DNA of 64,000 nt. Origin: a virus (Duplodnaviria; Caudoviricetes). A program made the position numbers and the translations under genes. Below, in pieces: positions 3,425 through 17,905 of the stretch (within the stretch, counting starts at the first letter, position 1; the number at the start of each line of letters is the position of its first letter). A model generated the notes under the pieces. That model was not told where the DNA came from and made no database searches. It was given only the letters and a program-made list of their open reading frames with translations. Where the stretch lies: IMG/VR virus record IMGVR_UViG_3300027563_000002, positions 1-64,000 of that record; one strand, 5' to 3'.

Positions 3425-3862
3425 TTACTGTGTTTCTTTATGTGCAGCCAAGGCCTTGGTAAAGCGGTTGGCATGTGAACGTTCTGCTTTGGCCAGGGTC
3501 TCAAACCAATCAGCAATTTCGTCATGACCTTCATCACGGGCTGTTTTGGCCATACCAGGATACATGTCAGTGTATTCATGTGTTTCACCATGAATAGCTG
3601 ATTCCAAAGCTTCGGTAGTGGTTTTGGCACTCATACCTGTACCTGGGTCACCGGAACCACCTTCGATCAGATATTCCATGTGACCATGTGCGTGTCCAGT
3701 TTCACCTTCGGCAGTGCTGCGAAACAAAGCAGCAATGTCGTTGTCACCAGCTACATCGGCCATGTTTGCAAAATACAAGTAACGACGATTGGCCTGGCTT
3801 TCACCAGCAAATGCTTCTTTCAAATTCAATTCGGTTTTAGTTCCTTTTACGGATTGTGTCAT
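3425..3862 (-). CDS. rubrerythrin family protein
   Basis: NLKEAFAGESQANRRY, EGETGHA, ETHEYTDMYP, AERSH di-iron motifs. Confidence 0.95.
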   Translation of the reverse strand: MTQSVKGTKTELNLKEAFAGESQANRRYLYFANMADVAGDNDIAALFRSTAEGETGHAHGHMEYLIEGGSGDPGTGMSAKTTTEALESAIHGETHEYTDMYPGMAKTARDEGHDEIADWFETLAKAERSHANRFTKALAAHKETQ

Positions 3863-3966
3863 GGGTTCCTCCTATTAGTGACATCACTAGTATATAGTAT
3901 TTCTATGTCACTGGTCAAGGCATTTTGCCATTGTATTTTTTAATGTCAATGTTTGAAGTTTTCTAT

Positions 3967-4041
3967 TGGTCGGCCCTGACGGGATCGAACCGCCACCGCT
4001 TGTTTCGAAGACAAGCATGATATCCATTTCACCAAGGGCCG
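3967..4041 (-). tRNA. tRNA-Arg(TCG)
   Basis: cloverleaf, anticodon loop CT-TCG-AA, encoded CCA. Confidence 0.9.
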
Positions 4042-4059
4042 GTGTTTGCTAAGTAACGT

Positions 4060-4761
4060 ATGACTGAACTATTATACACCTTGATTGCAACACATATCAC
4101 CATTGTTGCTGTCACACTGTTCCTGCACAGAAGCCAAGCACATCGCAGCGTACAGTTTCATCCTGCGGTGGCACACTTTTTTAGATTTTGGTTGTGGCTC
4201 ACAACTGGCATGGTCACAAAGCAATGGGTAGCTGTGCATCGCAAGCATCATAGATTCAGTGATGTAGAAGGTGATCCACATAGCCCACATGTGTATGGAA
4301 TCAAAAGAGTCTTTTTCAAAGGAGCAATGCTATATCATGCGGCATCAAAAGATAAAGTCATGGTTGATACATATGGTGTTGGTACTCCTGCTGATTGGAT
4401 TGAGCACAACTTATACAGTGCTCACTCCAGACTTGGCATTGGCATTCTCCTTGTGCTCAACACTTTGATATTTGGCTGGTGGGGTATTGTGATCTGGGCT
4501 ATACAAATGATATGGATACCATTCTGGGCTGCAGGTGTTGTGAATGGTGTGGCACACTGGTGGGGATATCGCAATGGCAAAACCAAAGATCAAAGTCGAA
4601 ATATCATGCCTTGGGGCATTGTGATCGGCGGCGAAGAACTACACAACAATCATCATCTTGATCCTGCCAGTGCTCGACTCAGCAGACGCTGGTGGGAGTT
4701 TGATATTGGATACATGTACATACGCATGCTTGGCGCTTTGCGTTTGGCCACTGTGAAATAA
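4060..4761 (+). CDS. delta-9 type fatty acid desaturase
   Basis: three His boxes HRSQAH, HRKHH, HNNHH; TM helices. Confidence 0.95.
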   Translation: MTELLYTLIATHITIVAVTLFLHRSQAHRSVQFHPAVAHFFRFWLWLTTGMVTKQWVAVHRKHHRFSDVEGDPHSPHVYGIKRVFFKGAMLYHAASKDKVMVDTYGVGTPADWIEHNLYSAHSRLGIGILLVLNTLIFGWWGIVIWAIQMIWIPFWAAGVVNGVAHWWGYRNGKTKDQSRNIMPWGIVIGGEELHNNHHLDPASARLSRRWWEFDIGYMYIRMLGALRLATVK

Positions 4762-4762
4762 C

Positions 4763-4836
4763 TGGTGCTCAAGTACAGAATCGAACTGTCGATTAATCCT
4801 TACCATGGATTCGTTATACCACTTAACTACAAGAGC
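4763..4836 (-). tRNA. tRNA-Thr(GGT)
   Basis: cloverleaf, AT-GGT-AA, CCA. Confidence 0.85.
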
Positions 4837-4840
4837 TGTT

Positions 4841-4915
4841 TGGAGCGGATGACGAGGATCGAACTCGTGACTTAACTTTGGCAAAGTTATGTGTTACCAT
4901 TAGCACCACACCCGC
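4841..4915 (-). tRNA. tRNA-Gly(GCC)
   Basis: cloverleaf, TT-GCC-AA, U73, CCA. Confidence 0.9.
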
Positions 4916-4921
4916 AATATC

Positions 4922-5392
4922 TTACGCCGCCCGCAGACCTTTGAAACGATCTGCGGCATAGCTGGCTGCAAAAGCCTCAGGCTTCACAAAAGGAATCACA
5001 TTGCATGTGCCTTTGATGTAGCCAATGGCCTGTGAAATCACACAGCTGGAACCATGCATTTCGTTGGGGTTGATGTCCAAGTGAACTTCAACATCACGCC
5101 CTTCCAGCACTTCGGCCAATTTCAAATACAGTTCTGAAACTTTGTAAACTTCAGTCATGAGTCTCATGGCCGGCTTTGATGCTTTTTGGTCCCACACACG
5201 TTCACGATGTACTTCGCCAAACAGTTTGCAACCGTTGTTGCCGTTGATGTGAACCACAACAGCCAACACATAGTCTGCCCACCATGCACCGTCAATTTTG
5301 ATGCGTTCTGAGTCGCATCCAAGGTAGATGCGTGTTTCTGGGCTTTGAGCCCGGATGAATTTGGCCACTTGGTCAATATCAAGTTTTTTCAT
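4922..5392 (-). CDS. RNase H-like YkuK (DUF458) family protein
   Basis: IYLGCDS, RLMTEV, EVHLDIN, AFAASYAAD motifs. Confidence 0.85.
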   Translation of the reverse strand: MKKLDIDQVAKFIRAQSPETRIYLGCDSERIKIDGAWWADYVLAVVVHINGNNGCKLFGEVHRERVWDQKASKPAMRLMTEVYKVSELYLKLAEVLEGRDVEVHLDINPNEMHGSSCVISQAIGYIKGTCNVIPFVKPEAFAASYAADRFKGLRAA

Positions 5393-5424
5393 ATGCACTT
5401 TCAAAATTATTTATGTTTGACTAA

Positions 5425-5501
5425 TGGTGCCCCAGAGGAGACTCGAACTCCTAAAATTTGGTTTCTAAGACCAACACGTATACCAATTCCGTCACCGGGG
5501 C
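5425..5501 (-). tRNA. tRNA-Leu(TAG), short variable loop
   Basis: CT-TAG-AA; 77 nt; no long variable arm. Confidence 0.85.
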
Positions 5502-5634
5502 GTTAAATACAATATGATTCCAGTATTTAAAGATCAATCCAAAATAGAAGTACTCTTTGAAATTTTTTCCAATCAACCATATGTGCCACGGGCGTATTGG
5601 ACCAACAATCGAGGATTTGAATTAGACTCATTAT

Positions 5635-5710
5635 TGGTGCCTCCTCCAGGTTCCGACCCTGGTTCCCCGGATTTTCAATCCGGTGCTATGACCACATCAG
5701 CTAAAGAGGC
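5635..5710 (-). tRNA. tRNA-Phe(GAA)
   Basis: TT-GAA-AA; atypical T-loop GTCGGAA. Confidence 0.85.
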
Positions 5711-5715
5711 ATGTT

Positions 5716-5790
5716 TGGTACCTTGTGACGGGATCGAACCGCCGACATTCGCCGTGTAAAGGCGCTACTCTACCGCTGAGTTAACAAGGC
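5716..5790 (-). tRNA. tRNA-Val(TAC)
   Basis: TT-TAC-AC, CCA. Confidence 0.9.
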
Positions 5791-5795
5791 ATATT

Positions 5796-5887
5796 TGGCG
5801 GAAGACGGAGGAGTCGAACCCCATCCCTGTTAAGAGAACCTGGTTTTCAAGGCCAGTCGCAGGACCAACCCCGCTGCATCATCTTCC
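5796..5887 (-). tRNA. tRNA-Ser(TGA), probable 8/4 fold
   Basis: CT-TGA-AA, long variable arm, G73, 8-bp acceptor and 4-bp T stem. Confidence 0.85.
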
Positions 5888-5897
5888 TTGGATTTAA

Positions 5898-6290
5898 TTA
5901 TTGTTGACTCAAACAGTTTGGACACAAAAAATCAACATTGCCCTGAGCAAAATTCTTTTGATTGCCGTCCTGATGAAACAGTTGTAGTTTCAATGGCCTG
6001 CTGTTGTAATCAGCAATGCCGCAACAAACACATTTGTAGTCTCTTTTTCTAACCGGTATACTTTTTACTGCCTGATCAGTGGGAATATCACTGTTGTGTT
6101 TAACGAATGTGCCGTCTGAGTGCTGTTTGAGTCTTTGTTCTACAGTCAGTTCTTTGAAAGTTTTTTGTAACAATCTTGCTGATTCAGATGTAGAACAATG
6201 CAAACTGCAATACCCTGGAGTGGATTTTTCTTGTGATCTGTTGTATGCAGACCGGCAATGTTGACAATAATATTGATTGTATCTATACAT
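5898..6290 (-). CDS. HNH-like Zn-finger endonuclease
   Basis: CxxC, CSxxC, CVCC...HQDGN..N...N...LCPNC. Confidence 0.7.
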   Translation of the reverse strand: MYRYNQYYCQHCRSAYNRSQEKSTPGYCSLHCSTSESARLLQKTFKELTVEQRLKQHSDGTFVKHNSDIPTDQAVKSIPVRKRDYKCVCCGIADYNSRPLKLQLFHQDGNQKNFAQGNVDFLCPNCLSQQ

Positions 6291-6308
6291 GTTTTATTTA
6301 TGTAACAA

Positions 6309-6563
6309 TCAAGATCGGTTCTGCTGAGTCCGTAATCGCATGCCCACCCAGGTACCCAAAAATGCACCTAGTCCTGCAGGGATCAGCAACCATGAATTTG
6401 TTGTGTAGTTGATCACTGCCACACAGGCCATCACAAACACCACAGTGGCCCACAAACTGGCAGCCATCACCTGTTCATGTTGCACTGCTCGCAGGTAGTA
6501 GGTGTAAAAGATATCTGTGAAGAACACAGCAAAAAAGGTCACAACATATTCCCACATGGGCAC
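6309..6563 (-). CDS. small membrane protein
   Basis: three hydrophobic helices. Confidence 0.65.
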   Translation of the reverse strand: MPMWEYVVTFFAVFFTDIFYTYYLRAVQHEQVMAASLWATVVFVMACVAVINYTTNSWLLIPAGLGAFLGTWVGMRLRTQQNRS

Positions 6564-6572
6564 TTTCTATTT

Positions 6573-6650
6573 TGGAGCAACGGGTGAGATTCGAACTCAC
6601 GGTTTTTGGGATTTGCAATCCCATGCGTTGGACCTCTCCGCCACCGTTGC
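6573..6650 (-). tRNA. tRNA-Cys(GCA)
   Basis: TT-GCA-AA, U73, CCA. Confidence 0.9.
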
Positions 6651-6656
6651 ATCGCT

Positions 6657-6730
6657 TGGTCTCCGATGCAAGAATCGAACTTGCGCCACATGGTCCCAAA
6701 CCATGAATGATACCATTTCACCAATCGGAG
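6657..6730 (-). tRNA. tRNA-Pro(TGG)
   Basis: TT-TGG-GA, C1-G72, CCA. Confidence 0.9.
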
Positions 6731-6740
6731 TAAAAAATTA

Positions 6741-6800
6741 GACCGCAAGTGCAAGTGACCTACGCCGGCAGGCTTTGCCTAGCGGGTATTACTTGCGGTC
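6741..6800 (-). ncRNA. putative small structured RNA between tRNAs
   Basis: perfect 10-bp terminal inverted repeat GACCGCAAGT/ACTTGCGGTC. Confidence 0.4.
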
Positions 6801-6804
6801 CAAA

Positions 6805-6878
6805 TGGAGCGGCGTGCGAGAATCGAACTCGCGACTTTAGCTTGGAAGGCTAAGGTAATACCATTTTACGAACGCCGC
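6805..6878 (-). tRNA. tRNA-Gly(TCC)
   Basis: CT-TCC-AA, CCA. Confidence 0.9.
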
Positions 6879-6888
6879 GTATGCAATA

Positions 6889-6917
6889 ATTATACAACAA
6901 ACATCACAGTTTGTCTA
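6889..6917 (-). promoter_or_regulatory. possible internal promoter TAGACA-17-TATAAT
   Basis: hexamers with 17-bp spacer just upstream of tRNA-Gly(TCC). Confidence 0.55.
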
Positions 6918-6924
6918 TTGTGTC

Positions 6925-7001
6925 TGGCAGGAGATATAGGATTCGAACCTATGCGTGTCGGAATCAAAATCCGATGCCTTAACCAACTTGGCGAATCTCC
7001 A
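6925..7001 (-). tRNA. tRNA-Gln(TTG)
   Basis: TT-TTG-AT, G73, CCA. Confidence 0.9.
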
Positions 7002-7008
7002 ACTGAAC

Positions 7009-7083
7009 TGGTAGCCACGGTTGGGAACGATCCAACGGCCCTTCGCTTATCAAGCGAATGCTCTACCACTGAGCTACGCGGCT
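7009..7083 (-). tRNA. tRNA-Ile(GAT)
   Basis: TT-GAT-AA; T-loop ATCGTTC. Confidence 0.88.
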
Positions 7084-7089
7084 AAAATT

Positions 7090-7165
7090 TGGTGGTAATA
7101 GTTGGACTCGAACCAACGGTAGGTTGCGTATGAAGCAACTGCATTAGCCACTATGCTATATTACC
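7090..7165 (-). tRNA. tRNA-Met(CAT), elongator type
   Basis: TT-CAT-AC, paired 1-72; Met vs Ile2 identity is inferred. Confidence 0.8.
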
Positions 7166-7243
7166 ATATAGAAACACACTTTATGCTTTGGGAACGACAT
7201 TGCTGTCGAGCAACCATCAACGGGTACGAAATGTGTTTTTATA
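7166..7243 (-). ncRNA. long-stem inter-tRNA element
   Basis: TATAAAAACACA...TGTGTTTCTATA terminal stem filling the whole spacer. Confidence 0.45.
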
Positions 7244-7317
7244 TGGTAGGGGTGTTCGGGAACGATCCGAATTTTACCGGTTAAAAGCCGGTTACTTCAC
7301 CTTAAAGTTTCACCCCC
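7244..7317 (-). tRNA. tRNA-Lys(TTT)
   Basis: CT-TTT-AA; T-loop ATCGTTC. Confidence 0.85.
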
Positions 7318-7370
7318 ATAGGTTTGCCATTCTTGTCACAGGTCATGACAGATCTCCTTTATAAAAAATT

Positions 7371-7444
7371 TGGTGCCCCACGACAGAATCGAACTGCCAT
7401 CACAGGATTACAAAACCAGTGTAATGCCATTATACTAGTAGGGC
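7371..7444 (-). tRNA. tRNA-Thr(TGT)
   Basis: TT-TGT-AA; two mismatches in anticodon stem. Confidence 0.8.
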
Positions 7445-7449
7445 GTGTT

Positions 7450-7525
7450 TGGCTCCTCAGGCTGGGCACGATCCAGCGACCAACAGATTAACAGTCTGCT
7501 ACTCTACCAACTGAGCTACTGAGGA
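7450..7525 (-). tRNA. tRNA-Asn(GTT)
   Basis: CT-GTT-AA, G73; T-loop ATCGTGC. Confidence 0.9.
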
Positions 7526-7532
7526 ATGAATT

Positions 7533-7691
7533 TTAGTCTTTTGGTTTTTCTCTTCGGACGCTGACTTCTGAACTGAGTTGTGCGTCGATCATCATGCGTT
7601 TGAATTGGTTGCGTCCTTCAGCAGGTCCGCCCATCAAGGCCTTCATGCGCTTGACTGTTTTACTGAGTCTAAATGTTTTGGTAGGTTTCAT
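7533..7691 (-). CDS. 52-aa basic hypothetical protein (not in ORF track)
   Basis: AAGGA SD; MKPTKTFRLSKTVKRMKALMGG...EKPKD*. Confidence 0.6.
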   Translation of the reverse strand: MKPTKTFRLSKTVKRMKALMGGPAEGRNQFKRMMIDAQLSSEVSVRREKPKD

Positions 7692-7706
7692 AAAATTCCT
7701 TATCTT

Positions 7707-7796
7707 TGGCGGAACGTTAGGGAGTCGAACCCTATCAGCGGCTCGTCACCACCGCGGGATTAGCAATCCCGTGCCTTACCATCCGGCCCACGTTCC
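7707..7796 (-). tRNA. tRNA-Ser(GCT)
   Basis: TT-GCT-AA, long variable arm, canonical 7/5. Confidence 0.9.
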
Positions 7797-7818
7797 TTGA
7801 AAATACTTATACCAACTG

Positions 7819-7893
7819 TGGTGGAGGGTAAGGGAATCGAACCCTTAACTCATGCTTGCAAAGCACATGTGTTCCCGTTAGCACCAACCCCCC
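7819..7893 (-). tRNA. tRNA-Ala(TGC)
   Basis: TT-TGC-AA, G3-U70. Confidence 0.9.
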
Positions 7894-7899
7894 ATGTCA

Positions 7900-7973
7900 T
7901 GGCATCCCGGGAGGGACTCGAACCCCCACAAACGGTTTTGGAGACCGCTATGCTGCCATTACACCACCGAGAC
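7900..7973 (-). tRNA. tRNA-Trp(CCA)
   Basis: CT-CCA-AA, G73. Confidence 0.9.
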
Positions 7974-8002
7974 AAATTTCTAACACACTGAAACCAGTGT
8001 GT

Positions 8003-8063
8003 GTATCAAAGCATTCTTCATGGATGAACCCACTTGCCCTAAGGCCCGAGAATGCTTTGATAC
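8003..8063 (-). ncRNA. long-stem element upstream of tRNA array A
   Basis: perfect 15-bp IR GTATCAAAGCATTCT/AGAATGCTTTGATAC. Confidence 0.45.
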
Positions 8064-8169
8064 TCCGGAATTTTACCATCAGCGTTTTCACCACTGACTT
8101 CCCATCCTCCGGGCCGCCCACATTTGTAGTTTAGAGTGATACAGGCTCGCGTTGCCATTGCACTTAATG

Positions 8170-8202
8170 AAAAACCCCGGAGTGTTCAGTTCCGGGGTTC
8201 TT
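8170..8202 (-). terminator. attenuator terminator of tRNA array A
   Basis: AAGAACCCCGGA-9nt-TCCGGGGTTTTT hairpin with U tract. Confidence 0.85.
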
Positions 8203-8226
8203 GTTAGGTATACGAATATAGTCTAA

Positions 8227-8337
8227 TCAGAACCCCGGAGCTCCTGGAATACTGTTGAATGAGCCATTGGCCAACAGCCAGGTTGTTGCCTGGAGCATTG
8301 TGGGCTTGGAAATTGAACAGAATTGTTGTTTCATCAT
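8227..8337 (-). CDS. 36-aa leader peptide A (MMKQQFCSISKPTMLQATTWLLANGSFNSIPGAPGF)
   Basis: ATG 7 nt after a perfect -10; last codons carry an 11-nt complement of the terminator 5' arm. Confidence 0.75.
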   Translation of the reverse strand: MMKQQFCSISKPTMLQATTWLLANGSFNSIPGAPGF

Positions 8338-8344
8338 AGTGCTT

Positions 8345-8373
8345 ATTATAGTTTATTTATGATTTGTTGTCAA
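8345..8373 (-). promoter_or_regulatory. perfect sigma70 promoter TTGACA-17-TATAAT driving leader A and array A
   Basis: exact consensus; spacer also contains TAAATA. Confidence 0.9.
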
Positions 8374-8387
8374 CCTATTGACAAATT

Positions 8388-8462
8388 TGGTTGCGGGGGA
8401 CGGACTCGAACCGCCGATCTCGAGCTTATGAGACTCGTGAGTTGCCACTTCTCCACCCCGCG
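8388..8462 (-). tRNA. initiator tRNA-fMet(CAT)
   Basis: CGCGGGG 5' end, C1xA72 mismatch, CT-CAT-AA. Confidence 0.85.
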
Positions 8463-8527
8463 GCAGAATATTTATTGTAGCAGATATCAAATAGTTGGTC
8501 AAGTCAGTTTGGACAATAAGTATTTGT

Positions 8528-9580
8528 ATGCTAAAGTTAGATCAAATACGCCGGGCACATGTGGAACTGACCACTCGGTGCAATGCTCGCTGCCCCATGT
8601 GTCCCAGAAACTATCGAGGGTTTGAATACAACTCAGGATACCCTGTGACCGAGCTCACTCTCAAAGACTTCAAGCATATTTTTCAACCCAGTTTTGTTGA
8701 GCAGTTGAAACCACCACCTGTGCCACAGGATGGATTCCCTCATCAAACCAACAAATTTTATGGCGTAATTTTCAACGGTAATCTTGGCGATTTTGCCCTG
8801 GCACATGACGGTGTGGAGATTGTAGAATATCTTGTGAGCCACGGCGTGGCAGTAATCATCTCCACCAATGGCAGCATGCGGTCAAAACCATGGTGGCGCC
8901 GTTTGGCATTGCCGGGAGTCACCATTGGATTTGCCTTGGATGGCCTGGCCGACACACACAGTTTGTATAGACAAGATACCAACTGGCAAACAGTGGTTGA
9001 CAATGCTCAGGCATTCATTCAAGCAGGTGGCAGAGCCGTATGGCGATTTGCGCCATTTGATCACAATCGTCATCAAGAGAGTGCCTGTCAACAATTATCA
9101 CAGGAGTTGGGATTTGTAAGATTTGACAACATTTACGATGGCCGAAACACCGGACCAGTGTTCTCACGTGATGGCGAATACAGTCATCAAATTGGCCACG
9201 ATCCTCGTTCAGCACATATTATACCCAGCATACAAGGCCTATTGGAAAATCACAAAACATGGTTTGATCATCGCACAATCAAAATAGCCAAGGATGAACC
9301 AGAGTTACGTTTGGTATGCGAGCACAAACGCCAGGAAGAAATTTACATTGCAGCCGACGGCACAGTGTACCCTTGTTGTTTTTTGGGTTACTATCCCACC
9401 ACAATGACACACCCCGGCAACGAACAATTGAAACAATTGGTTCACGAAAACAATGCACTAGAATATGATCTTGCTCATTGCCTGGACTGGTTTGAACGCA
9501 TAGAAGAAACATGGAAACAGGCCAGCATAGCCGAAGGTAGATTATACGGCTGTGTCAACAATTGCGGAGGTAGATCATGA
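8528..9580 (+). CDS. radical SAM protein with SPASM/twitch-like C-terminus
   Basis: CNARCPMC; DGTVYPCC; start follows a TAAGTA motif. Confidence 0.85.
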
Positions 9581-10443
9581 GTGTGGCAAGAGTGTTATTT
9601 TTAGCACGTTATCGTGTGCCGCATGCTTGCTTTGCACTGCAATGGGACCACAACCTGGTGGGCATTGACCACACAGTGATTGCTACGCCCATGAGTCGAG
9701 AAGAACTAGAACCTGTGTGGGCTCAGTACAACATTGACAGCAGCAATTTTGTCTATGTCAACGACAGTGAGATCTATCAACGCTATCCCGAGGTCAATCA
9801 CTGGGTGTTTGATGGTGACTATCGTGGCTGGTGGCTGCGCCAGCAGGCAATCAAATTGGCATACTTGGACCTGCTGGACGCTGATGTCATGCTCATGCAT
9901 GACGCAGATACATTCATGACCGAACCATACTGTTGTTATGACAATGGCACACTAAACCTATTGAGTTTGTTGAACACCACACAAGGCAGTTACACAGGAG
10001 TGTTCGAAGCCATTACTGGTATGCCACACGCCAGTCCACACTGCTTTGTGACTGAGCTGTGTGCTGTGCGCAAGAGAGATTTTGTAGAGCTACGCAGACA
10101 CATTGAATCACGCTGGCCCCATAAGAAATGGCTGGATGCCATCATTGAAGCAGTGCCGGGCATGCCCACTGTACCTCCCTGGGGCGCAGGTAACATTATC
10201 AAATGGTTCAGCGAATACGAGTTGTTGGGCAACTGGGCTGTGACCCAAGGTGGTGTAACCTATCAAGCGCAACGCAGATTTGAATACAATGAACTGGACC
10301 AATTGGCCAACTTGACTACAGAATACAATGCTGTGTGTGATGCAGTTCCGGATCTGAGTCGCAGTATGCAGTTTGATTGGGCAACGTTGGATGTGCCCAA
10401 TTTTGAACACTACCGGCAGATGGTGCAGAATGTCACATCCTAA
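9577..10443 (+). CDS. DUF6492-like GT-A/nucleotide-sugar transferase-like protein
   Basis: [22 protein letters not shown]; paralog of 12867-13673. Confidence 0.55.
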
Positions 10444-11521
10444 ATTCAGTTACCCAGTCTACAACCCCTGTTGTGATTCCATTGACGTGGCACGTGACTG
10501 GGGTCTGGGCATACTGGATGTCACAACTGATATTGATCTGGTGCTGGCACAACCCTTTCGTGTGGCAGCAGTGCAAGTGTTTTACAATCAACCCTGGATA
10601 TACAGTTACAATCCCAATTTGAAGATTGATCTAAGCCAGTTTGATCTTGTGTTGTTTAGTGACATGGAGTACTATACTCAAGCAGATATTGAAGACTGGA
10701 TCAGCCAACAACAGGTCCAACAATATGTGTTGGCCTTGGGAGGTATCAATCCCACTGACTGTTTGAAACCCAATCAACTGTATCGCCCTTGGTGGATTCG
10801 ACAATTTCAAGAATTTAATGAGTACACAGATACTCAGGCCACTACCAAGCCCTATTTGTTTGATGCCCTGCTTGGAGCACGTAGGCCCCATCGAGACTAT
10901 GTGATGTTGGCTCTGGCACGTGTGGGATTGCTAGAGCAAAGTCTGGTGACCTATCGTGATTGTTTTCCGGGTGCAGTGATAAATGATCAAAACACTTATT
11001 TTCAAAGCCTGTTTCCCAATAAGTTAAACTGGCCCTATGTGAGTCCACAGTTGGATCCGTTGTGGGAAGTGCGCACAGTGATCGACAACACTGTTAGTCT
11101 CGACAGCCCGTTGGAAATATATCGTCGTACTTGGTACAGTATCATTTGTGAAACCATTGGCACCGGGTCAACATTTTTTCTAAGTGAAAAAACTATAAAG
11201 GCCATGTACAACCGCAGAATCTTTGTGATTTTTGGTCCACAAGGCTACCTGCGCCACTTGCGTGAACAGGGCTTTGCCACATTCAGCGGTGTTGTTAATG
11301 AAAGTTATGATGATGAGCCCAGGGATAGCATACGCTTTCAACTGGCCATGCATCAAGTCATGCAGCTGGCCTGGTTTGAGGATCCCACAGAAATGTATGA
11401 CAGCATGAGTACTGCATTGGATCAGAATCAATCACGTTTGCGTGAGCTGGAAGAAAAACGCTCACGTGATCAGCGTGAGCTGTTGCATCATCACATACCC
11501 GGTCATCACTGGTTATGGTAA
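10430..11521 (+). CDS. putative GT-B-like protein (ET...SEKT family)
   Basis: SIICET, LSEKTIK, LREQGFATF...ESYD; paralogs elsewhere in window. Confidence 0.55.
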   Translation: MSHPKFSYPVYNPCCDSIDVARDWGLGILDVTTDIDLVLAQPFRVAAVQVFYNQPWIYSYNPNLKIDLSQFDLVLFSDMEYYTQADIEDWISQQQVQQYVLALGGINPTDCLKPNQLYRPWWIRQFQEFNEYTDTQATTKPYLFDALLGARRPHRDYVMLALARVGLLEQSLVTYRDCFPGAVINDQNTYFQSLFPNKLNWPYVSPQLDPLWEVRTVIDNTVSLDSPLEIYRRTWYSIICETIGTGSTFFLSEKTIKAMYNRRIFVIFGPQGYLRHLREQGFATFSGVVNESYDDEPRDSIRFQLAMHQVMQLAWFEDPTEMYDSMSTALDQNQSRLRELEEKRSRDQRELLHHHIPGHHWLW

Positions 11522-12328
11522 ATCAAAATCTCTTGTGATTCTGTTGTACCACTGCTCGGCAATGAGTTCTTGGCCGCGTGGGCTAGAGTGATATCCAGGG
11601 TCTTCGCCTGTGAACGGATTGTTGCCACAGATGGCCTGTGGATTTTGATCACTGTGGGTCAACAGATACTGGTCGGGAATCATGCCGGGAAATGCCTCAC
11701 GCCATTGAGTGGGATTGCTGGGGTCAAACGGCCACAGCAGGTTGGGCAAGAACAAAAACTTGATGCCATCCAGGTACATTGACATCACACCTTCACGCAT
11801 GATCCACTCGTCTTGTTGTTTTTTCCAAGCATTGTCATAAATGCTGTCAATCCAGGCACGAATGCCACGTTGTGCATCTTTGCTGATTCTAGCCATTCTA
11901 TAGGGATGATCAAAGTTTTCTGCCAGTGTAAAAATAGTTTCACAAATCATGTTGCTGGGCCCTGTGCCATAGTTCACATTCTTTATACCATCTTCTCTGC
12001 AATATCCGTTGCCACGTTTGCAATCTTGCAGGTGCTTTTCCAGTGGCGGATTCTCTCCAGCACTGGGCGCTTGTGTCCAATCGTATGGAGCAGAGTTGGC
12101 AGGGATTTCCATACGATCCCAAAACGTTGCACTTACCACAGCAAAGTCTGGACGTTGTCTGCGTATTTCTTCCATTTGCAAACGGATACCGCCATTGCTG
12201 CAACCTTGACGTGCTAGATTGACCAAGTTCCAGCCCAGTCGTTGGGCCAGTAGTTCACTCCAGGCAGTGCCAGGCATGGTGTTTGACACTGCTGAAAACG
12301 AGCAGCCTGCTACCATTAATTTTTTCAT
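11513..12328 (-). CDS. SGNH/GDSL-like hydrolase or acyltransferase
   Basis: N-terminal GCSFS, NLARQGCSN, C-terminal His. Confidence 0.6.
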   Translation of the reverse strand: MKKLMVAGCSFSAVSNTMPGTAWSELLAQRLGWNLVNLARQGCSNGGIRLQMEEIRRQRPDFAVVSATFWDRMEIPANSAPYDWTQAPSAGENPPLEKHLQDCKRGNGYCREDGIKNVNYGTGPSNMICETIFTLAENFDHPYRMARISKDAQRGIRAWIDSIYDNAWKKQQDEWIMREGVMSMYLDGIKFLFLPNLLWPFDPSNPTQWREAFPGMIPDQYLLTHSDQNPQAICGNNPFTGEDPGYHSSPRGQELIAEQWYNRITRDFDLP

Positions 12329-12870
12329 TGCATTGACTCCAGTATTGATTGCACCTCTTGCGGCACATGGTATTCGTTGCGGTGTCCGTTGATGTGAAAT
12401 GGTTCCACTGTGTTTTTGTGCAGAGGAAATTCATCCAAACTATACACATCTGCGTCCAACGAAAACACACAATTGCCTTGTCCGGGACCTTGAAATGTCA
12501 CTGCATTTTTGAAATGTTGTGTCACACAACGATTTACAAACACATGATGCAGGTGCCCATAATCGCCTGATTGATTGTGTGTGAGCACCAGGTCCTGGTC
12601 AGCAATGGCCGACAATATGGCCTGCTGGGCAGCAGACGCATCAAAACTTATGAATTTGTTTTCGATATCATGCCAGTTGTCCACAAATTCCAAAAATTTA
12701 GTTGCAACTCCTCGACGAGCCCAAAATTGTGCGAATTCGCTGCCACGATGGTCTGTGGCACCGTAGGTAAGATAACAAACAGTCCAATCAAATTTGGGGT
12801 GATGATGCATAAAACTGTAGGCAAATATCACACAATCATCAGGGTGTGCTACCATGACCGTGGCCTTCAT
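12325..12870 (-). CDS. PIG-L/LmbE-like deacetylase
   Basis: VAHPDD and THN..GDYGHLHH motifs. Confidence 0.8.
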   Translation of the reverse strand: MKATVMVAHPDDCVIFAYSFMHHHPKFDWTVCYLTYGATDHRGSEFAQFWARRGVATKFLEFVDNWHDIENKFISFDASAAQQAILSAIADQDLVLTHNQSGDYGHLHHVFVNRCVTQHFKNAVTFQGPGQGNCVFSLDADVYSLDEFPLHKNTVEPFHINGHRNEYHVPQEVQSILESMQ

Positions 12871-13673
12871 TTGATACCTCTTTGAGATAAGAAATTGATA
12901 TATCGAGCACGTTGCTGGTCTGACAGTTGTTGCCAGGCATTTCGATGTATGCTCACTGTGGTGGCCTGACACATCTCAGAAAATTTCCGATCAAATTCTG
13001 CCACCTCACTGTGACATAAATTACAAGGCACAATACTGGTGTGATCAACATCATAAATTTTATCAAATGATCCTTGGGAAAACAACACATATCCTGAATA
13101 CAGAATGAACTCAGTTATCATTCCTTGATCTTGAAACCAGTGTGCAAAATCTTGTTTGGTGCGTGACTGTATTTCTTGAATCATGTCATATACCAATTGA
13201 TTGTTCATCACAAAAGGCACACCACCGGGGCCCAGTTGATTTGATAAATCGATGTCAAACAGTTTGCTGACTAGTTGTTGACTGATTTTAAATACAGGAA
13301 ATATATCCAACAACCCTGTCTGCGGACGATCATGGTATTTTGGCACTGGGTTGACAAACAACGTTTTGGCATCCACGACCATGCTCCAGGTATTTTTGCC
13401 AAGAGCACAGGCCAGCAATTTCAAAAGTTGTTGAGTAAGCCATCCGTTTTCGGCGTAATCGACGGACCAACTGCTACGATGAATTATCTTTACACGATCT
13501 TTGAATTGTCCCCACCAAGCAGGATTCACATCATCGACGGTCATGCGGTCATCGTTGACAATCACAACAATGTCACCAAGGTCCATGTGTTGACAATACA
13601 ATTCCACACTTTGTGCCTGTAATTTCAGTGTGGGTAATTCGTCAAGAAATACCACAGTAACTAGATCCATCAT
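12867..13673 (-). CDS. DUF6492-like protein
   Basis: GWLTQQLLKL, VDAK, TEFILY. Confidence 0.55.
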   Translation of the reverse strand: MMDLVTVVFLDELPTLKLQAQSVELYCQHMDLGDIVVIVNDDRMTVDDVNPAWWGQFKDRVKIIHRSSWSVDYAENGWLTQQLLKLLACALGKNTWSMVVDAKTLFVNPVPKYHDRPQTGLLDIFPVFKISQQLVSKLFDIDLSNQLGPGGVPFVMNNQLVYDMIQEIQSRTKQDFAHWFQDQGMITEFILYSGYVLFSQGSFDKIYDVDHTSIVPCNLCHSEVAEFDRKFSEMCQATTVSIHRNAWQQLSDQQRARYINFLSQRGIK

Positions 13674-13715
13674 GACAATATTTAAGTGTTACAGCTCAGG
13701 CAATAATTTATATCA

Positions 13716-13792
13716 TGGGGTGCATGATGGGATTCGAACCCACGCATATCGGAATCACAATCCGAGGTCTTGACCGCTTGACGACACGCACC
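13716..13792 (-). tRNA. tRNA-His(GTG)
   Basis: TT-GTG-AT, G-1:C73. Confidence 0.9.
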
Positions 13793-13866
13793 ATATTGAA
13801 GCACACTCAACTTTCTGCCCTTGATTCACTACTGCTACTAGGGGCATGTTCTAATGTGCTTCAATA
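13793..13866 (-). ncRNA. long-stem inter-tRNA element
   Basis: perfect IR (CC)ATATTGAAGCACA/TGTGCTTCAATAT(GG). Confidence 0.45.
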
Positions 13867-13943
13867 TGGCGCGACCAGAAGGATTCGAACCTCCCACCCC
13901 TGCGTTCGTAGCACAGTGCTCTATCCAAATGAGCTATGGTCGC
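13867..13943 (-). tRNA. tRNA-Arg(ACG)
   Basis: CT-ACG-AA, CCA. Confidence 0.9.
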
Positions 13944-14727
13944 TGTTCAAATATGATTGAATTCTATTTGCAATAGTTTGTTGCAAGTTTAATTTAATCA
14001 TGCTATTTTCGTCTCCGTTGGCATAATGATATTGTTGAAATAAATCAATACAGTTAATACCATCTTTAAGAATTTTATCAAATACATCTATATTTTCTTG
14101 ATTCATATCACCAAATTTAACTATGGTCCATTTTATAGAAAAATGCGTTAGCACTTTAACAAGTTGTTCATAACTTTTTTTATGTTTTTTGCTGTGCCAG
14201 TCACGAGACTGGTTTGTTTGAAACTGTATCCTATGCAAGAGTTTTTGATGTACTTCAATGGGTGTTATACTGTGATTGATCAAAGATTCAAGATTTTTCT
14301 CAAAAAAGTATCTTTTATTTTCATATCTAAATGAACTTGACACATGTGGAAATGTAAAATCAGTTACTAACACATGATCTGGCATTCCTACTTCTTCAAT
14401 GTGCTGTAAAAGACGTTTGTGATATCCGGTAAAAGTAGCTCCGTTGAATGAACGATTTGTTACTTCGGCGTTCATCAAATTGGGCCAAGCTACTTTTAGC
14501 TCTTCCTCACGAAGATACGTCCACATGGCTGTCTCAATGTCTCGTGAAGATATTGGATCTAAATTATTATTTTTGCGCCTCCGAGCCAGGAACCACATTA
14601 TTGCCTTAGGCACATTTTCAGAATGAAAACGTAAACTCCATGAGCGAGGTAATGAATTACCTAAAACTTCATCGGCTAAACAGTTATTACCGTTACTTTG
14701 ACAATCCCCTAGCACTAGTATTTTCAT
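13921..14727 (-). CDS. AT-rich SGNH-like hypothetical protein inserted in tRNA array B
   Basis: LGDCQS N-terminus; 3' end overlaps tRNA-Arg by 23 nt. Confidence 0.6.
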   Translation of the reverse strand: MKILVLGDCQSNGNNCLADEVLGNSLPRSWSLRFHSENVPKAIMWFLARRRKNNNLDPISSRDIETAMWTYLREEELKVAWPNLMNAEVTNRSFNGATFTGYHKRLLQHIEEVGMPDHVLVTDFTFPHVSSSFRYENKRYFFEKNLESLINHSITPIEVHQKLLHRIQFQTNQSRDWHSKKHKKSYEQLVKVLTHFSIKWTIVKFGDMNQENIDVFDKILKDGINCIDLFQQYHYANGDENSMIKLNLQQTIANRIQSYLNSDHSSFG

Positions 14728-14834
14728 AACTTATGTATATAATTTATCACGTTGATAAAATTTTAGAAAGATTTGTACAATTGTCACTTCACTATTTAAA
14801 CTCCAATTGGGAATATCTAGTGACATCATAAACT

Positions 14835-14910
14835 TGGCGGTCCTAGGGGGTAACGATCCCCACTCTTACGGCGTGACAAGCCGTCGTGCGTCCATGAACA
14901 CTTTAGGACC
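14835..14910 (-). tRNA. tRNA-Asp(GTC)
   Basis: TT-GTC-AC, G73; T-loop ATCGTTA. Confidence 0.88.
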
Positions 14911-14916
14911 AAAAAT

Positions 14917-15002
14917 TGGTGGAGACGGATGGATTCGAACCACCGCGCTTTTTAGGGGCCAGATTTACAGTCTGGTGCAATCAACCACTCTGCCACGTCT
15001 CC
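14917..15002 (-). tRNA. tRNA-Tyr(GTA)
   Basis: CT-GTA-AA, long variable arm. Confidence 0.9.
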
Positions 15003-15010
15003 AAAAAAGA

Positions 15011-15076
15011 GTAAGGGCAAGGTTGCAGAGCCTAGTGTCCCAGACTGGGAGAAGTGCTCAGGCGATATGCCCTTAC
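15011..15076 (-). ncRNA. putative small structured RNA between tRNAs
   Basis: 9-bp IR GTAAGGGCA/TGCCCTTAC plus inner TCCCAG/CTGGGA hairpin. Confidence 0.4.
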
Positions 15077-15081
15077 AAAAA

Positions 15082-15156
15082 TGGTACACGATACGAGAAT
15101 CGAACTCGTCTTTCCGGCGTGAAAGGCCAGCGTCCTAACCGATAGACGAATCGTGC
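15082..15156 (-). tRNA. tRNA-Glu(TTC)
   Basis: CT-TTC-AC, CCA. Confidence 0.9.
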
Positions 15157-15160
15157 AAAT

Positions 15161-15395
15161 TACTATATGAAAATACATTAGGGAAGTTCTTGACACGCAT
15201 CACCAACTTGCATCAAGACCTCATTACGGGCCCAGTTGTTCCGCCGCCTTCCTGGAGTTTGTTATAGTTCTTGCCCTTTGACTCGATGGTGTCTCGTCAT
15301 ACTCTAGAACCCTCCTGCTTCATGGGTATCCGGTTCGCATCAACCTTCGTTCACCCCTAACGGACTAGGTAACCCTAATGTGTTTTCATATAGTA
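15161..15395 (-). ncRNA. about 235-nt putative ncRNA closed by a 23-bp stem
   Basis: 15161-15183 and 15373-15395 are inverted repeats with one mismatch; no ORF-track entry inside. Confidence 0.5.
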
Positions 15396-15488
15396 CCCTA
15401 TAACTAGACAGGGACTATATGACAATCGAAATTTTAACTAACCGGTCAACTAGTCTCGATCGACTGTGCTGTTTTCTAACTAGTCTCT

Positions 15489-15517
15489 AGTATAACACCT
15501 CTACCATTATTGGTCTA
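15489..15517 (-). promoter_or_regulatory. possible secondary promoter TAGACC-17-TATACT
   Basis: just downstream of terminator B. Confidence 0.45.
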
Positions 15518-15521
15518 GCAC

Positions 15522-15554
15522 AAAAAGAAAAACCCGCCTAGGTGGCGGGTTTTT
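15522..15554 (-). terminator. attenuator terminator of tRNA array B
   Basis: AAAAACCCGCC-ACCTA-GGCGGGTTTTTCTTTTT. Confidence 0.85.
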
Positions 15555-15574
15555 GCTTGAGTAGTACTTTTGTA

Positions 15575-15685
15575 TTAGGTACCACTGCTCCCGCTGTGTG
15601 TAGTATAGGCCAGCGCCTCACGACGATAATCATGTAGTTCGTGTGAGGGTATCTCAAAGGACAGTTGGGCGATTTGCTTAATCAT
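15575..15685 (-). CDS. 36-aa leader peptide B (MIKQIAQLSFEIPSHELHDYRREALAYTTHSGSSGT)
   Basis: ATG 5 nt after TATAAT; rich in E/H/D/Y/R; 3' codons can pair with the terminator 5' arm. Confidence 0.72.
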   Translation of the reverse strand: MIKQIAQLSFEIPSHELHDYRREALAYTTHSGSSGT

Positions 15686-15690
15686 AGTGT

Positions 15691-15719
15691 ATTATATATG
15701 ACAGTGAGTCAAAAGTCAA
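15691..15719 (-). promoter_or_regulatory. sigma70 promoter TTGACT-17-TATAAT driving leader B
   Basis: near-consensus. Confidence 0.85.
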
Positions 15720-15745
15720 TGATTTTCTAAACGTCTTTTACCGAT

Positions 15746-15937
15746 TCATGTTCTTCCGGGTGGAAGTTTTGTGGTACCCAGTTGACGTTCAAATGAACCA
15801 GGTCCGGCCAACTCAGGTGGCAAGGGTGGTGGAACATAGCGTTCCTTTGGCGGCTTTGAGCCAAATATGGATTGGTGTCGGTTGGCCAGTTCTTCCTGAC
15901 TGACCACTGACGGACGGGGTCGTGTGCCTTTGCTCAT
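15746..15937 (-). CDS. small hypothetical protein (MSKGTRPRP)
   Basis: GAGGAG SD. Confidence 0.65.
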   Translation of the reverse strand: MSKGTRPRPSVVSQEELANRHQSIFGSKPPKERYVPPPLPPELAGPGSFERQLGTTKLPPGRT

Positions 15938-15970
15938 GGTATCTCCTCAATAGTGTAGTATACACAAAGA

Positions 15971-16154
15971 CAAAAGGCCCGTCAAGGCCTTTTGGGTTGT
16001 TTCTGTTACGAGGTATTTCCTACCCTAGGCAGTGTTTAGGCTGCCAAAGCGAACTGTTCGTCGTTTGCATTTACGTTTTTTGCTTGATTAACGGTCATCG
16101 CCTACCGTGCTGTCCACTCTGGTACTTGTTGCCCTGTCGAAACTATGCAGGCCC
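15971..16154 (-). ncRNA. ssrA: tmRNA coding piece (permuted two-piece tmRNA)
   Basis: 5' GGGCCTG-CATAG-TTTCGAC; tag ANDEQFALAA* at 16068-16036; terminator hairpin 15971-15994. Confidence 0.9.
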
Positions 16155-16166
16155 ATCATAAAAAGT

Positions 16167-16427
16167 CTATTTCGAACAGTAAGTTTCCTTACAAGTCGAA
16201 CAAGAAATATCTAATAGTTTAATATCAAATACTTCCATTTCTAAATGCTTACAACACTTATCTTTACAGTTAGCACAATCTAAATTATCAAGTGCATCAT
16301 AAACACATTTAGTTTCTGAACAAAACATTCCTGTATTTCTATTAGGAAAGTTTCTACAACAACTAGGACGAGTTTCATAGATGCTACAAAGTTCATCAGC
16401 GTTTAAGTAAGGACAGCTTATACTCAT
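16167..16427 (-). CDS. Cys-rich YkgJ-like (Zn/Fe-chelating) protein inside the tmRNA intervening segment
   Basis: CPYL...CSIYETRPSCCRNFP and CxxCxxxCC; AT-rich; GAGG SD. Confidence 0.7.
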   Translation of the reverse strand: MSISCPYLNADELCSIYETRPSCCRNFPNRNTGMFCSETKCVYDALDNLDCANCKDKCCKHLEMEVFDIKLLDISCSTCKETYCSK

Positions 16428-16438
16428 TAGACCTCTTA

Positions 16439-16505
16439 TGGTGGACCTGGGGGGATTCGCACCCCCGTCCAGAACACTTTTCTCATCACTTCATACAGCA
16501 ATAAC
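16439..16505 (-). ncRNA. ssrA: tmRNA acceptor piece
   Basis: GGACGGGGGTGCGAATCCCCCCAGGTCCACCA; pairs with GGGCCTG to give G3-U70; 5' limit approximate. Confidence 0.88.
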
Positions 16506-16518
16506 TCTTATTTACCCT

Positions 16519-16992
16519 TTATTCACTGCTGGGCTCCTCGGCCACACGCCATCCCAGGATGGCCAAATCTGCGGCAATTTGGTCGGTAACATTGCCTTCA
16601 CCAACAAAGTTGCTGTCAGTCTTGTCGCCAATGCCTGAACAGTACCAGTTCATGTAGTCTTCGCCCACGTCTCTCAAATCAGCTACAAGCCCGCCAGCGT
16701 AACGCCAACTGCATGACCAGTAGGCATCTTTTAACACAAGCCAAACATCTTGTTTTTGGAAACTGTTGTTGCACAAGGCAGCATACAAGTTTTGTGCATA
16801 GTCATCACTGCCGCGCACTAGGCTCACAAACCAGTCGGCCTGGTTCATGTCATATTCCATGTTGTTGATTTTGAATTCATCAGACTGCTTACGCTCAGCC
16901 TCCATCTGGGCCCATTGGCCACGAAGGTCATCAAAGAAGTCGTCGTCTGTGCCTTCACTCTCATGCTGTGGTTCTATGGTGATGTTGCTCAT
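16519..16992 (-). CDS. hypothetical phage protein
   Basis: YAQNLYAALCN, WSCSWRYAGG; AAGGA SD. Confidence 0.75.
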   Translation of the reverse strand: MSNITIEPQHESEGTDDDFFDDLRGQWAQMEAERKQSDEFKINNMEYDMNQADWFVSLVRGSDDYAQNLYAALCNNSFQKQDVWLVLKDAYWSCSWRYAGGLVADLRDVGEDYMNWYCSGIGDKTDSNFVGEGNVTDQIAADLAILGWRVAEEPSSE

Positions 16993-17023
16993 GTCAGTTC
17001 CTTTGGTACTTATTGGTACTTAT

Positions 17024-17107
17024 TGGTACGAGTAACCGGAGTCGAACCGGTACGCCAATGGCGGCAGATTTTAAGTCTGCTGGGTCTACCTGTTCCCCCA
17101 TACTCGT
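17024..17107 (-). tRNA. tRNA-Leu(TAA)
   Basis: CT-TAA-AA, variable arm. Confidence 0.9.
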
Positions 17108-17121
17108 ATGCTGTTATTTAC

Positions 17122-17196
17122 TGGTCCGGCGTAGAGGAATCGAACCTCTATAATGACTTTAGAAGAATCATGTCCTATCCGTTGAACGAACGCCAG
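17122..17196 (-). tRNA. tRNA-Arg(TCT)
   Basis: CT-TCT-AA. Confidence 0.88.
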
Positions 17197-17202
17197 ATTG
17201 TT

Positions 17203-17279
17203 TGGTGGGCCGTCGGTGATTCGAACACCGCACCAAAGGATTATGAGTCCTCTGCTCTAACCGAATGAGCTAACGGCCC
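17203..17279 (-). tRNA. tRNA-Ile2(CAT, lysidine type)
   Basis: GGGCC...TAGCTCA..GGTTAGAGCA..GACTCATAATC resembles bacterial ileX. Confidence 0.8.
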
Positions 17280-17303
17280 TACATGTGTATTGTAACAGGA
17301 ATT

Positions 17304-17684
17304 TTATTTATAGTCAACAGTGCCGTCTGCCAGGTGGTCCTGTTTGATTTCTTTCACAGCATGTCCCAAAATGGATGCTACAGAATTTTTGTAGGCAATG
17401 CGTTGATTGTTGAAATCTCTGATGGCAATGGCTCGTCGCCCAATCTCCTGGAGACTCAACATTTGTTCTACACCGCTTTTGAGTTGCCATTCCAGGTCCC
17501 AAATGGCATGGTGAATATCAGTCATGGCCTGAATCACTTGATCCAATTCTGAGCTTTGGGACAGTTGTTGATACTTGTCCTCGTACCAATCAAGTTCAAC
17601 TTGATTTGCACCTTGGGTCCTGGCGTGTTTTACTCTGGCAATGCAGAGTCTATCGATCAGTTCTAATACTGGTAAGAATTCCAT
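17304..17684 (-). CDS. hypothetical helical protein
   Basis: ELIDRLCI..., WDLE; TTGACA-17-TATAAT at 17714-17742. Confidence 0.7.
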   Translation of the reverse strand: MEFLPVLELIDRLCIARVKHARTQGANQVELDWYEDKYQQLSQSSELDQVIQAMTDIHHAIWDLEWQLKSGVEQMLSLQEIGRRAIAIRDFNNQRIAYKNSVASILGHAVKEIKQDHLADGTVDYK

Positions 17685-17753
17685 AAGGGGCCTTTCTTGT
17701 GTTATGGATTCTAATTATATAATATTGCGAAGTGTTTGTCAACACTTGCTAGA

Positions 17754-17891
17754 TCAAGTCAACAGTTGGTTGATGGTGTGTATGGCCAGTTGAACCAAAT
17801 CTGGATCAACACCCATTCTGTGTGCTATTTCTGCGGTGCTGAGATTGCGGTCCAGCAGTTCTCGTACTTGGTTGATGATTTCTCGCTTCAT
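17754..17891 (-). CDS. small HTH-like protein (not in ORF track)
   Basis: MKREIINQVRELLDRNLSTAEIAHRMGVDPDLVQ. Confidence 0.5.
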   Translation of the reverse strand: MKREIINQVRELLDRNLSTAEIAHRMGVDPDLVQLAIHTINQLLT

Positions 17892-17905
17892 GTATATATA
17901 ACGCT

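Follow-up and report, generated by a model that had tools for sequence, protein, structure and literature searches.

Probable leader-peptide attenuators ahead of two transfer RNA arrays in a large uncultured phage

The DNA considered here, called the window, consists of the first 64 kb (64,000 nucleotides, nt) of a 110-kb IMG/VR record (IMGVR_UViG_3300027563_000002; Duplodnaviria, Caudoviricetes) that is judged to be about 32% complete. The 27 transfer RNA (tRNA) genes called in it by ARAGORN are all located on the minus strand, and two arrays of them, A and B, are each preceded by a compact unit composed of a σ70 promoter, an open reading frame (ORF) of 36 codons, and an intrinsic terminator (Table 1). 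A first-pass annotation, made from the sequence alone, proposed that these units (units A and B) are attenuators, in which a short leader peptide senses the depletion of tRNAs and induces the array that resupplies them. The features on which it relied, namely the two 36-codon minus-strand ORFs with their promoters, terminators, and tRNA arrays, are all found upon translation and tRNA calling, and the array contents that it listed are identical to the ARAGORN calls. Because the ATG of each leader lies only 5-7 nt past the -10 box, the transcripts are predicted to be leaderless; a Shine-Dalgarno sequence would not fit. When the 110-kb record is searched with a strict detector (a good promoter, an ATG 4-9 nt past the -10 box, an ORF of 15-70 codons, and a terminator), units A and B are the sole good-promoter units that match.

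Table 1. Features of units A and B, their arrays, and the intervening segments (positions in the window)
Feature	Position	Strand	Basis or remark
Promoter A, perfect TTGACA-17-TATAAT	8345-8373	minus	ATG starts 7 nt past -10 box
Leader ORF A (P0001), 36 codons + TGA	8227-8337	minus	Translation, comparison of homologues
R1 of unit A, predicted antiterminator 5' arm	8230-8239	minus	Within last codons, adjoining stop codon
R2 of unit A, shared arm, pairs with R1 (antiterminator) or R3 (terminator)	8190-8201	minus	Three-way compensatory changes
Intrinsic terminator A	8170-8199	minus	Downstream of leader ORF A
R3 of unit A (8173-8181) and T-run, terminator 3' arm	8170-8181	minus	Folding, pairing in relatives
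Structured spacer RNA between attenuator A and tRNA-Trp, ~200 nt, in read-through transcript	7974-8169	minus	Covariation
tRNA array A: W A S N T K M I Q, G P C (Ser-UGA-like) V F L, G T, distal R(TCG)	3967-7973	minus	ARAGORN
Internal promoter-like site in array A, between tRNA-Gln and tRNA-Gly(TCC)	6889-6917	minus	Hexamers kept over diverged spacer in L003, L004, L065
Promoter B, TTGACT-17-TATAAT	15691-15719	minus	ATG starts 5 nt past -10 box
Leader ORF B (P0002), 36 codons + TAA	15575-15685	minus	Translation; homologues 32-36 codons, in-frame indels
R1 of unit B, GCGGG, pairs with CCCGC of terminator 5' arm	15590-15594	minus	Weak antiterminator
Intrinsic terminator B (R2 + R3, 11-bp stem, T-run)	15528-15554	minus	Downstream of leader ORF B
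Promoter-like site TAGACC-17-TATACT, upstream TG	15489-15517	minus	10 nt past terminator B; same position in most B-type units
tRNA array B: E Y D R(ACG) H	13716-15156	minus	ARAGORN; single ORF 13921-14727 within

Neither leader peptide matches any Pfam family, and when the DNA of the leader A region is compared with cultured phages, matches are confined to the flanking tRNA genes. Neither leader region has a second match anywhere in the 110-kb record, so an origin as fragments or repeats of other phage DNA was rejected. Both leaders do share the CACT-ATGA start noted in the first-pass annotation; part of this similarity, though, is a promoter-proximal motif that is common to other early promoters of the phage.

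The amino acid composition of the two leaders drew attention to them initially. Leader A contains 14 kinds of amino acid, each of which is represented in array A, and lacks Asp, Glu, His, Arg, and Tyr; leader B contains 11 residues of these five kinds, and both of its Arg codons are CGT. The first-pass estimate that such an absence in leader A would occur with a probability of about 4e-5 is too optimistic. Together the five residues account for 21.2% of the long ORFs of the phage, from which the probability of none in 35 is 2.3e-4, and all five are also absent from 5 of the 491 ATG-initiated ORFs with 30-45 codons that the 110-kb record contains (1%), so that the empirical p value from these window-only statistics is about 0.01, which is weak. 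The content of leader B (11/35) is not significant by itself (p=0.11), and the contrast between the two leaders gives p=4e-4 (Fisher). Taken by itself, the window thus makes a case that is suggestive at best.

Relatives of the locus provide a larger sample. For a DUF458 protein whose gene is part of array A (4922-5404, minus strand), 540 relatives were found, on viral contigs that reach 364 kb in length, and identity to any cultured phage protein is less than 60%; on this basis, the leader-terminator-tRNA element is assigned by sequence to a large family of uncultured phages with genomes of ~340 kb. About 70 homologous units were collected from this family. The ATG-initiated open frame just past the -10 box is kept in all 28 homologues of unit A found by BLAST and in nearly all homologues of unit B, and the initial ATG is doubled in half of the units. 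In the 68 units used for counting stops, the other two frames contain 209 and 143 stops in ~2,480 codons. Differences in leader length among close relatives are multiples of three. Within the clade of the window, variable sites are spread over the three codon positions (12/8/9) with no third-position bias, which indicates that the peptide sequence drifts while the frame and the amino acid repertoire are kept. This pattern fits selection on the codons present rather than on the peptide product.

The order and content of the tRNA arrays are heavily shuffled among these relatives, and this shuffling constitutes a natural experiment for the matching of leaders and arrays. The first-pass annotation had suggested looking in relatives for a leader ORF and terminator upstream of tRNA arrays and asking whether leader composition co-varies with array content; both are found. 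The comparison comprised 39 distinct units with complete arrays, grouped into 19 clusters at 50% peptide identity. More leader residues have a tRNA in their own array than in any permutation of arrays among leaders (z ~4.5, p<=2e-4, using one representative per cluster). The excess persists when representatives are permuted within array-size classes (p 0.004-0.009 for large arrays and 1e-4 to 9e-4 for small arrays). Of the amino acids of an array, 92-94% occur in its leader, and when an array has a tRNA for Cys, Asp, Glu, Phe, Gly, Lys, Leu, Asn, or Ser, the residue is always present in the leader (the cell 'array has, leader lacks' is 0). The relation is asymmetric, in that extra residues are allowed in leaders. 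Some of the B arrays were over-extended, because a few A-type units, in which the ATG is further from the -10 box, escaped the detector even after the promoter criterion was relaxed; this error works against the hypothesis.

Finer comparisons point the same way. Within clusters, contrasts between units whose arrays differ in one amino acid are concordant in eight cases, discordant in none, and tied in one (p=0.004). In two separate clusters, tRNA-Cys and the single Cys codon of the leader have been lost together, and cases involving His, Tyr, and Ala are alike. In genomes that contain two units, each leader favours residues for which only its own array, of the two, has a tRNA; this holds for 6 of 6 genome pairs, with a pooled odds ratio of 8.2. 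At the level of amino acids, then, the leaders match their arrays.

A ribosome-dependent attenuator also requires an alternative to the terminator hairpin, and such a pairing exists and co-varies in relatives. In 34 distinct units drawn from the first 80 related loci, the minimum-energy nascent fold pairs the 5' arm of the terminator (R2) with a segment in the last codons of the ORF (R1) in 32 cases; the antiterminators have predicted energies of -12 to -30 kcal/mol and the terminators -8 to -14 kcal/mol. For the nascent RNA of unit A, when R3 (the 3' arm of the terminator) is not yet included, the probability of R1-R2 pairing is ~1.0. In all 34 units, 23-41 nt separate the stop codon from R2 downstream, and R1 begins 7-38 nt before the stop. 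Given this placement, a ribosome at the stop codon would cover R1 but not R2.

Compensatory changes involve all three segments. Since MAFFT misaligned R2 and R3 when A- and B-type units were mixed, an anchored table was used. In this table, R2 positions +3 to +5 change among G, C, and T, and the partners in both R1 and R3 compensate, while R2 positions -3 and -2 alternate between G and A with R1 correspondingly C or T. Covariation was counted in an alignment of 40 A-type units only. Here the antiterminator helix is paired in 83% of cells, versus 57-61% when slid by one column, and its 30 cells with double changes were reached in 0 of 500 shuffles; the terminator helix is paired in 98.6% of cells and has 12 double changes (0/500 shuffles). 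A common order of motifs, consisting of a G-rich R1, a small inner hairpin, an R2 that contains ACCC, and R3, is present in A-type and B-type units, which are probably paralogous.

These features suggest how the units could work. Transcription from the strong early promoter would begin at or beside the ATG of the leader. If the 36 codons are translated without delay, the ribosome would reach the stop codon, in or just past R1, and cover R1; R2 would then pair with R3, and RNA polymerase would terminate ahead of the tRNA genes. If instead a scarcity of charged tRNA stalls the ribosome within roughly the first 27 codons, or if no ribosome has loaded, R1 would capture R2, the formation of the terminator would be blocked, and transcription would enter the array. 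Expression of the array would consequently be high early in infection or when those tRNAs are limiting and would be turned off once decoding is fast. Because each leader contains the amino acids of its own array's tRNAs, such an arrangement would create a multivalent, need-based negative feedback on tRNA supply. Units A and B are likely to be transcription attenuators of this type, mediated by the ribosome and a leader peptide, and slow decoding probably raises the phage's production of tRNAs.

Several points weigh against this interpretation. Translation of the leader, stalling, and the response of read-through to stalling are inferred from the anatomy of the units, the conserved open frame, the covariation of both helices, and the co-variation of leaders with arrays, all of which are observed. 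Classical attenuators owe their sensitivity to tandem runs of codons, and the phage leaders instead have 1-3 scattered codons per amino acid and no such runs. Leaders also hold amino acids from outside their own array: about two-thirds of the residues of leader B belong to the set of array A. An excess of non-matching residues, expected in the tail of the ORF, is not significant after de-replication. The description of the leaders as codon-matched stands at the amino acid level but barely at that of synonymous choice, since, given the peptide, 81% of synonymous codons are cognate versus 80% expected, a difference that is not significant. Anticodon coverage given the peptide is 83% versus 79% (p 0.001-0.05), so that the match at the codon level is marginal; as it lies near the codon-usage null, 'amino-acid-matched' fits better than 'codon-matched'. 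The antiterminator of unit B is weak. Its R1-R2 pairing probability is 0.47-0.77, and its predicted energy of -27.5 kcal/mol is about 8 weaker than the -35.9 kcal/mol of the terminator fold, and it is not the minimum-energy nascent fold; the antiterminators of B-type units in other relatives are stronger. Shuffle-based p values overstate independence, because the sequences are related. Finally, judged from sequence, much of the tRNA expression could bypass the attenuators by way of the predicted promoters after terminator B and within array A.

Both of these promoter-like sites, which the first-pass annotation had listed as candidates, are conserved in relatives. B-type spacers in relatives often have a second promoter-like site ~100 nt further on; in A-type spacers, no promoter-like site was found. 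The attenuators would therefore not be the sole input, especially for array B. Within the B-type spacer of the window (15157-15527, minus strand), the conserved promoter-like sites adjoin a twice-repeated GAGACTAGTT motif, which might serve a phage regulator as its operator. The promoter-like site inside array A has a palindromic spacer, whose symmetry survives in L003, L004, and L065 by way of compensatory substitutions; a regulator may bind there, or the spacer may fold as an RNA or DNA hairpin.

The same observations can be read in other ways. The attenuators could be coupled to translation and yet respond to its general capacity, through the loading or speed of ribosomes on leaderless transcripts (for instance when the host has been shut off), and not to particular tRNAs; leader content would then be tied to function only loosely. 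The predicted folds, in which read-through is the default when translation does not occur, would suit such a sensor, as would the use of one codon per amino acid without runs, the many residues from outside the array, and the marginal match of codons. What makes this explanation unlikely is that Cys, His, Ala, and Tyr come and go in the leaders of close relatives together with the matching tRNA gene and that the leaders of small arrays are enriched for exactly the amino acids of their own array. A different proposal retains the architecture of the tRNA-supply attenuator but assigns it a primary role in counter-defence: the units would detect cleavage of host tRNAs by anticodon nucleases of the PrrC, PARIS, retron, or VapC type and induce replacement tRNAs. 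Induction based on need would serve this purpose, and the phage carries a transfer-messenger RNA (tmRNA) gene and, within its arrays, the ribonuclease-like DUF458 gene. Nevertheless, nothing here links the element to the nucleases, plain feedback on supply accounts for all of the observations, and the leaders cover up to ~18 amino acids rather than the few that are typical targets (Lys, Glu, Gln, Thr, Asn, and similar). As the primary role, counter-defence is thus rather improbable as well.

It is also conceivable that each ORF is part of a short gene in its own right, for a small protein or for a small RNA that runs from promoter to terminator, and that these genes merely adjoin arrays that are transcribed from other promoters or by unregulated leak-through. 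Each unit is indeed a complete promoter-ORF-terminator cassette, there are conserved promoter-like sites past terminator B and in array A, and the terminated RNA of ~165 nt could have a function in trans, such as is reported for the trpL attenuator RNA of rhizobia. An autonomous gene, on the other hand, would not need R1, which is conserved and co-varies with R2, and would not be expected to have a composition that tracks the array. In addition, the peptide is not conserved (there is no third-position bias) and matches no family, and the A-type spacers lack a promoter. This explanation is very unlikely, and attenuation by leader translation, as a response to the supply of the tRNAs in each array, is preferred.

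In transcripts that read through terminator A, a further conserved, structured RNA would be present. Compensatory double changes are found in 22 of the 35 pairs predicted for this spacer RNA. Each related locus yields a single match to a covariance model of the 5' half of this RNA, in every case following an A-type unit, with scores of 56-95 bits. The spacer RNA has no match in Rfam and is absent from B spacers and from Xanthomonas phage BUDD, a cultured phage described below.

The arrays and their surroundings have other unusual constituents. A tRNA-Ser(UGA)-like gene (5800-5887, minus strand) was missed by ARAGORN at its default settings and scores 36.6 bits with the Rfam model for tRNA-Sec. 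It is homologous to tRNA-Ser(TGA) of the relative L003, which occupies the same position in the array, and it would make both TCA codons of leader A cognate. The DUF458 protein in array A (PHROG 11311) is called a 'ribonuclease' in some phage annotations, and its gene is also embedded in the tRNA arrays of many unrelated phages (of Vibrio, Xanthomonas, Ruegeria, and Synechococcus); the protein may be a tRNA-processing or repair factor. The tmRNA gene is permuted (the two-piece type) and lies between the tRNA clusters (16036-16500, minus strand). It scores 129 bits with Rfam RF04321, versus a gathering score of 47, and ARAGORN calls it in several relatives but not in the window. Two sets of tRNA genes on the minus strand have their own promoters without a leader ORF: tRNA-Met (8388-8462; region 8388-8502) and a Met/Arg(TCT)/Leu(TAA) cluster (17024-17279; region 17024-17317). 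The counterpart of this single tRNA-Met closes array B in relatives; the window has ~5 kb of other genes (8.5-13.7 kb), among them plus-strand ORFs, separating it from array B. One of these plus-strand ORFs has a weak radical-SAM-like PHROG match.

A unit of similar design is present in BUDD (ON758385; L203:14795-14975). An unannotated ORF of 39 codons starts with an ATG 5 nt past a -10-like hexamer and is followed by a small hairpin and then by a terminator built on the same GGGT / GGACCC / GGGTTTTT motifs. The unit lies 313 nt ahead of the main tRNA array (W C P A A L K T G E E R Y Y V), and the leader holds 11 of the 12 kinds of amino acid of this array. No comparable unit was seen on examination of Stenotrophomonas phage DLP_6. 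BUDD offers an experimental system for the leader-terminator-array unit.

Leader-peptide attenuators are well known from enterobacteria. They include trpL, hisL, leuL, and pheL, as well as the leaders of thr (thrL) and ilvGMEDA, which are multivalent and sense more than one amino acid. The phage units resemble the trp, his, thr, and ilv attenuators in having a short leader ORF, a terminator, and a mutually exclusive antiterminator, with the position of the ribosome proposed to decide between the two and the codons to name what is sensed. In contrast to the enterobacterial systems, however, they are encoded by a phage, are placed ahead of tRNA genes rather than genes for biosynthetic enzymes, and would be read from leaderless mRNA. 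They also consist of three elements (R1, R2, and R3) without a protector hairpin, so that an untranslated leader is predicted to give read-through, whereas in enterobacteria it gives superattenuation. Finally, they sample up to ~18 amino acids with 1-3 scattered codons each instead of using tandem runs. An Rfam search of positions 3500-18000 (E<=1) yields tRNAs, the tmRNA, and chance hits, with no T-box and no His, Trp, Thr, Leu, Phe, or other leader family.

Control of the decoding machinery by the availability of charged tRNA also has parallels. In the pheST attenuator, the pheM leader senses one amino acid and regulates a synthetase, while T-box riboswitches have no leader ORF and bind uncharged tRNA directly. 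Like these systems, the phage units are proposed to place components of the decoding machinery under the control of charged tRNA. A precedent for the leaderless design is found in mycobacteria, where a polycysteine small ORF is reported to be leaderless, to be located at the 5' end of an operon transcript, and to act as an amino-acid-responsive attenuator (bioRxiv 10.1101/834739). These bacterial attenuators respond to a single amino acid through runs of Cys codons and serve Cys-related operons rather than tRNA genes. In Anabaena, a large accessory tRNA array (the trn L-array) is silent by default and is induced under translational stress; TrcR, an RHH-family (ribbon-helix-helix) repressor, binds direct repeats over the -10 box and the start site (PMC8421152; PMC10272220). 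That array, like those of the phage as proposed here, is switched on when translation is impaired, but by way of a protein repressor rather than an attenuator; the terms 'attenuat' and 'leader' do not occur in the text of the 2021 paper describing it. The first-pass annotation knew of no account of such control, and a search of the full-text literature, which did not extend to older subscription literature on the tRNA region of phage T5, turned up no description of phage tRNA genes controlled by a leader peptide.

It is possible, though doubtful, that the arrangement is general: phages of several unrelated lineages would meter their tRNA supply with 'mirror' leaders that sample up to ~18 tRNA species at 1-3 codons each and co-evolve with the arrays codon by codon, with the read-through RNA here also carrying a new structured RNA and the units perhaps doubling as sensors of host defences that target tRNAs. 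The expression of tRNA genes is usually viewed as being controlled at the promoter, by growth rate and the stringent response, or, for one accessory array, by a repressor. If the interpretation given here is true, a translation-sensing attenuator placed before tRNA genes would form a direct feedback loop from the speed of decoding to the synthesis of tRNA. It would provide a natural design for a multivalent sensor, with one codon per amino acid, and it would help to explain how large phages dose dozens of tRNAs and why the content of the arrays and of small unannotated ORFs co-evolves. Leader ORFs of 25-48 codons, which are unannotated in the genomes, should then be recognized as regulatory. 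The question of why phages carry tRNAs, either to supply codons or to replace tRNAs destroyed by the host, would become testable by asking what induces read-through.

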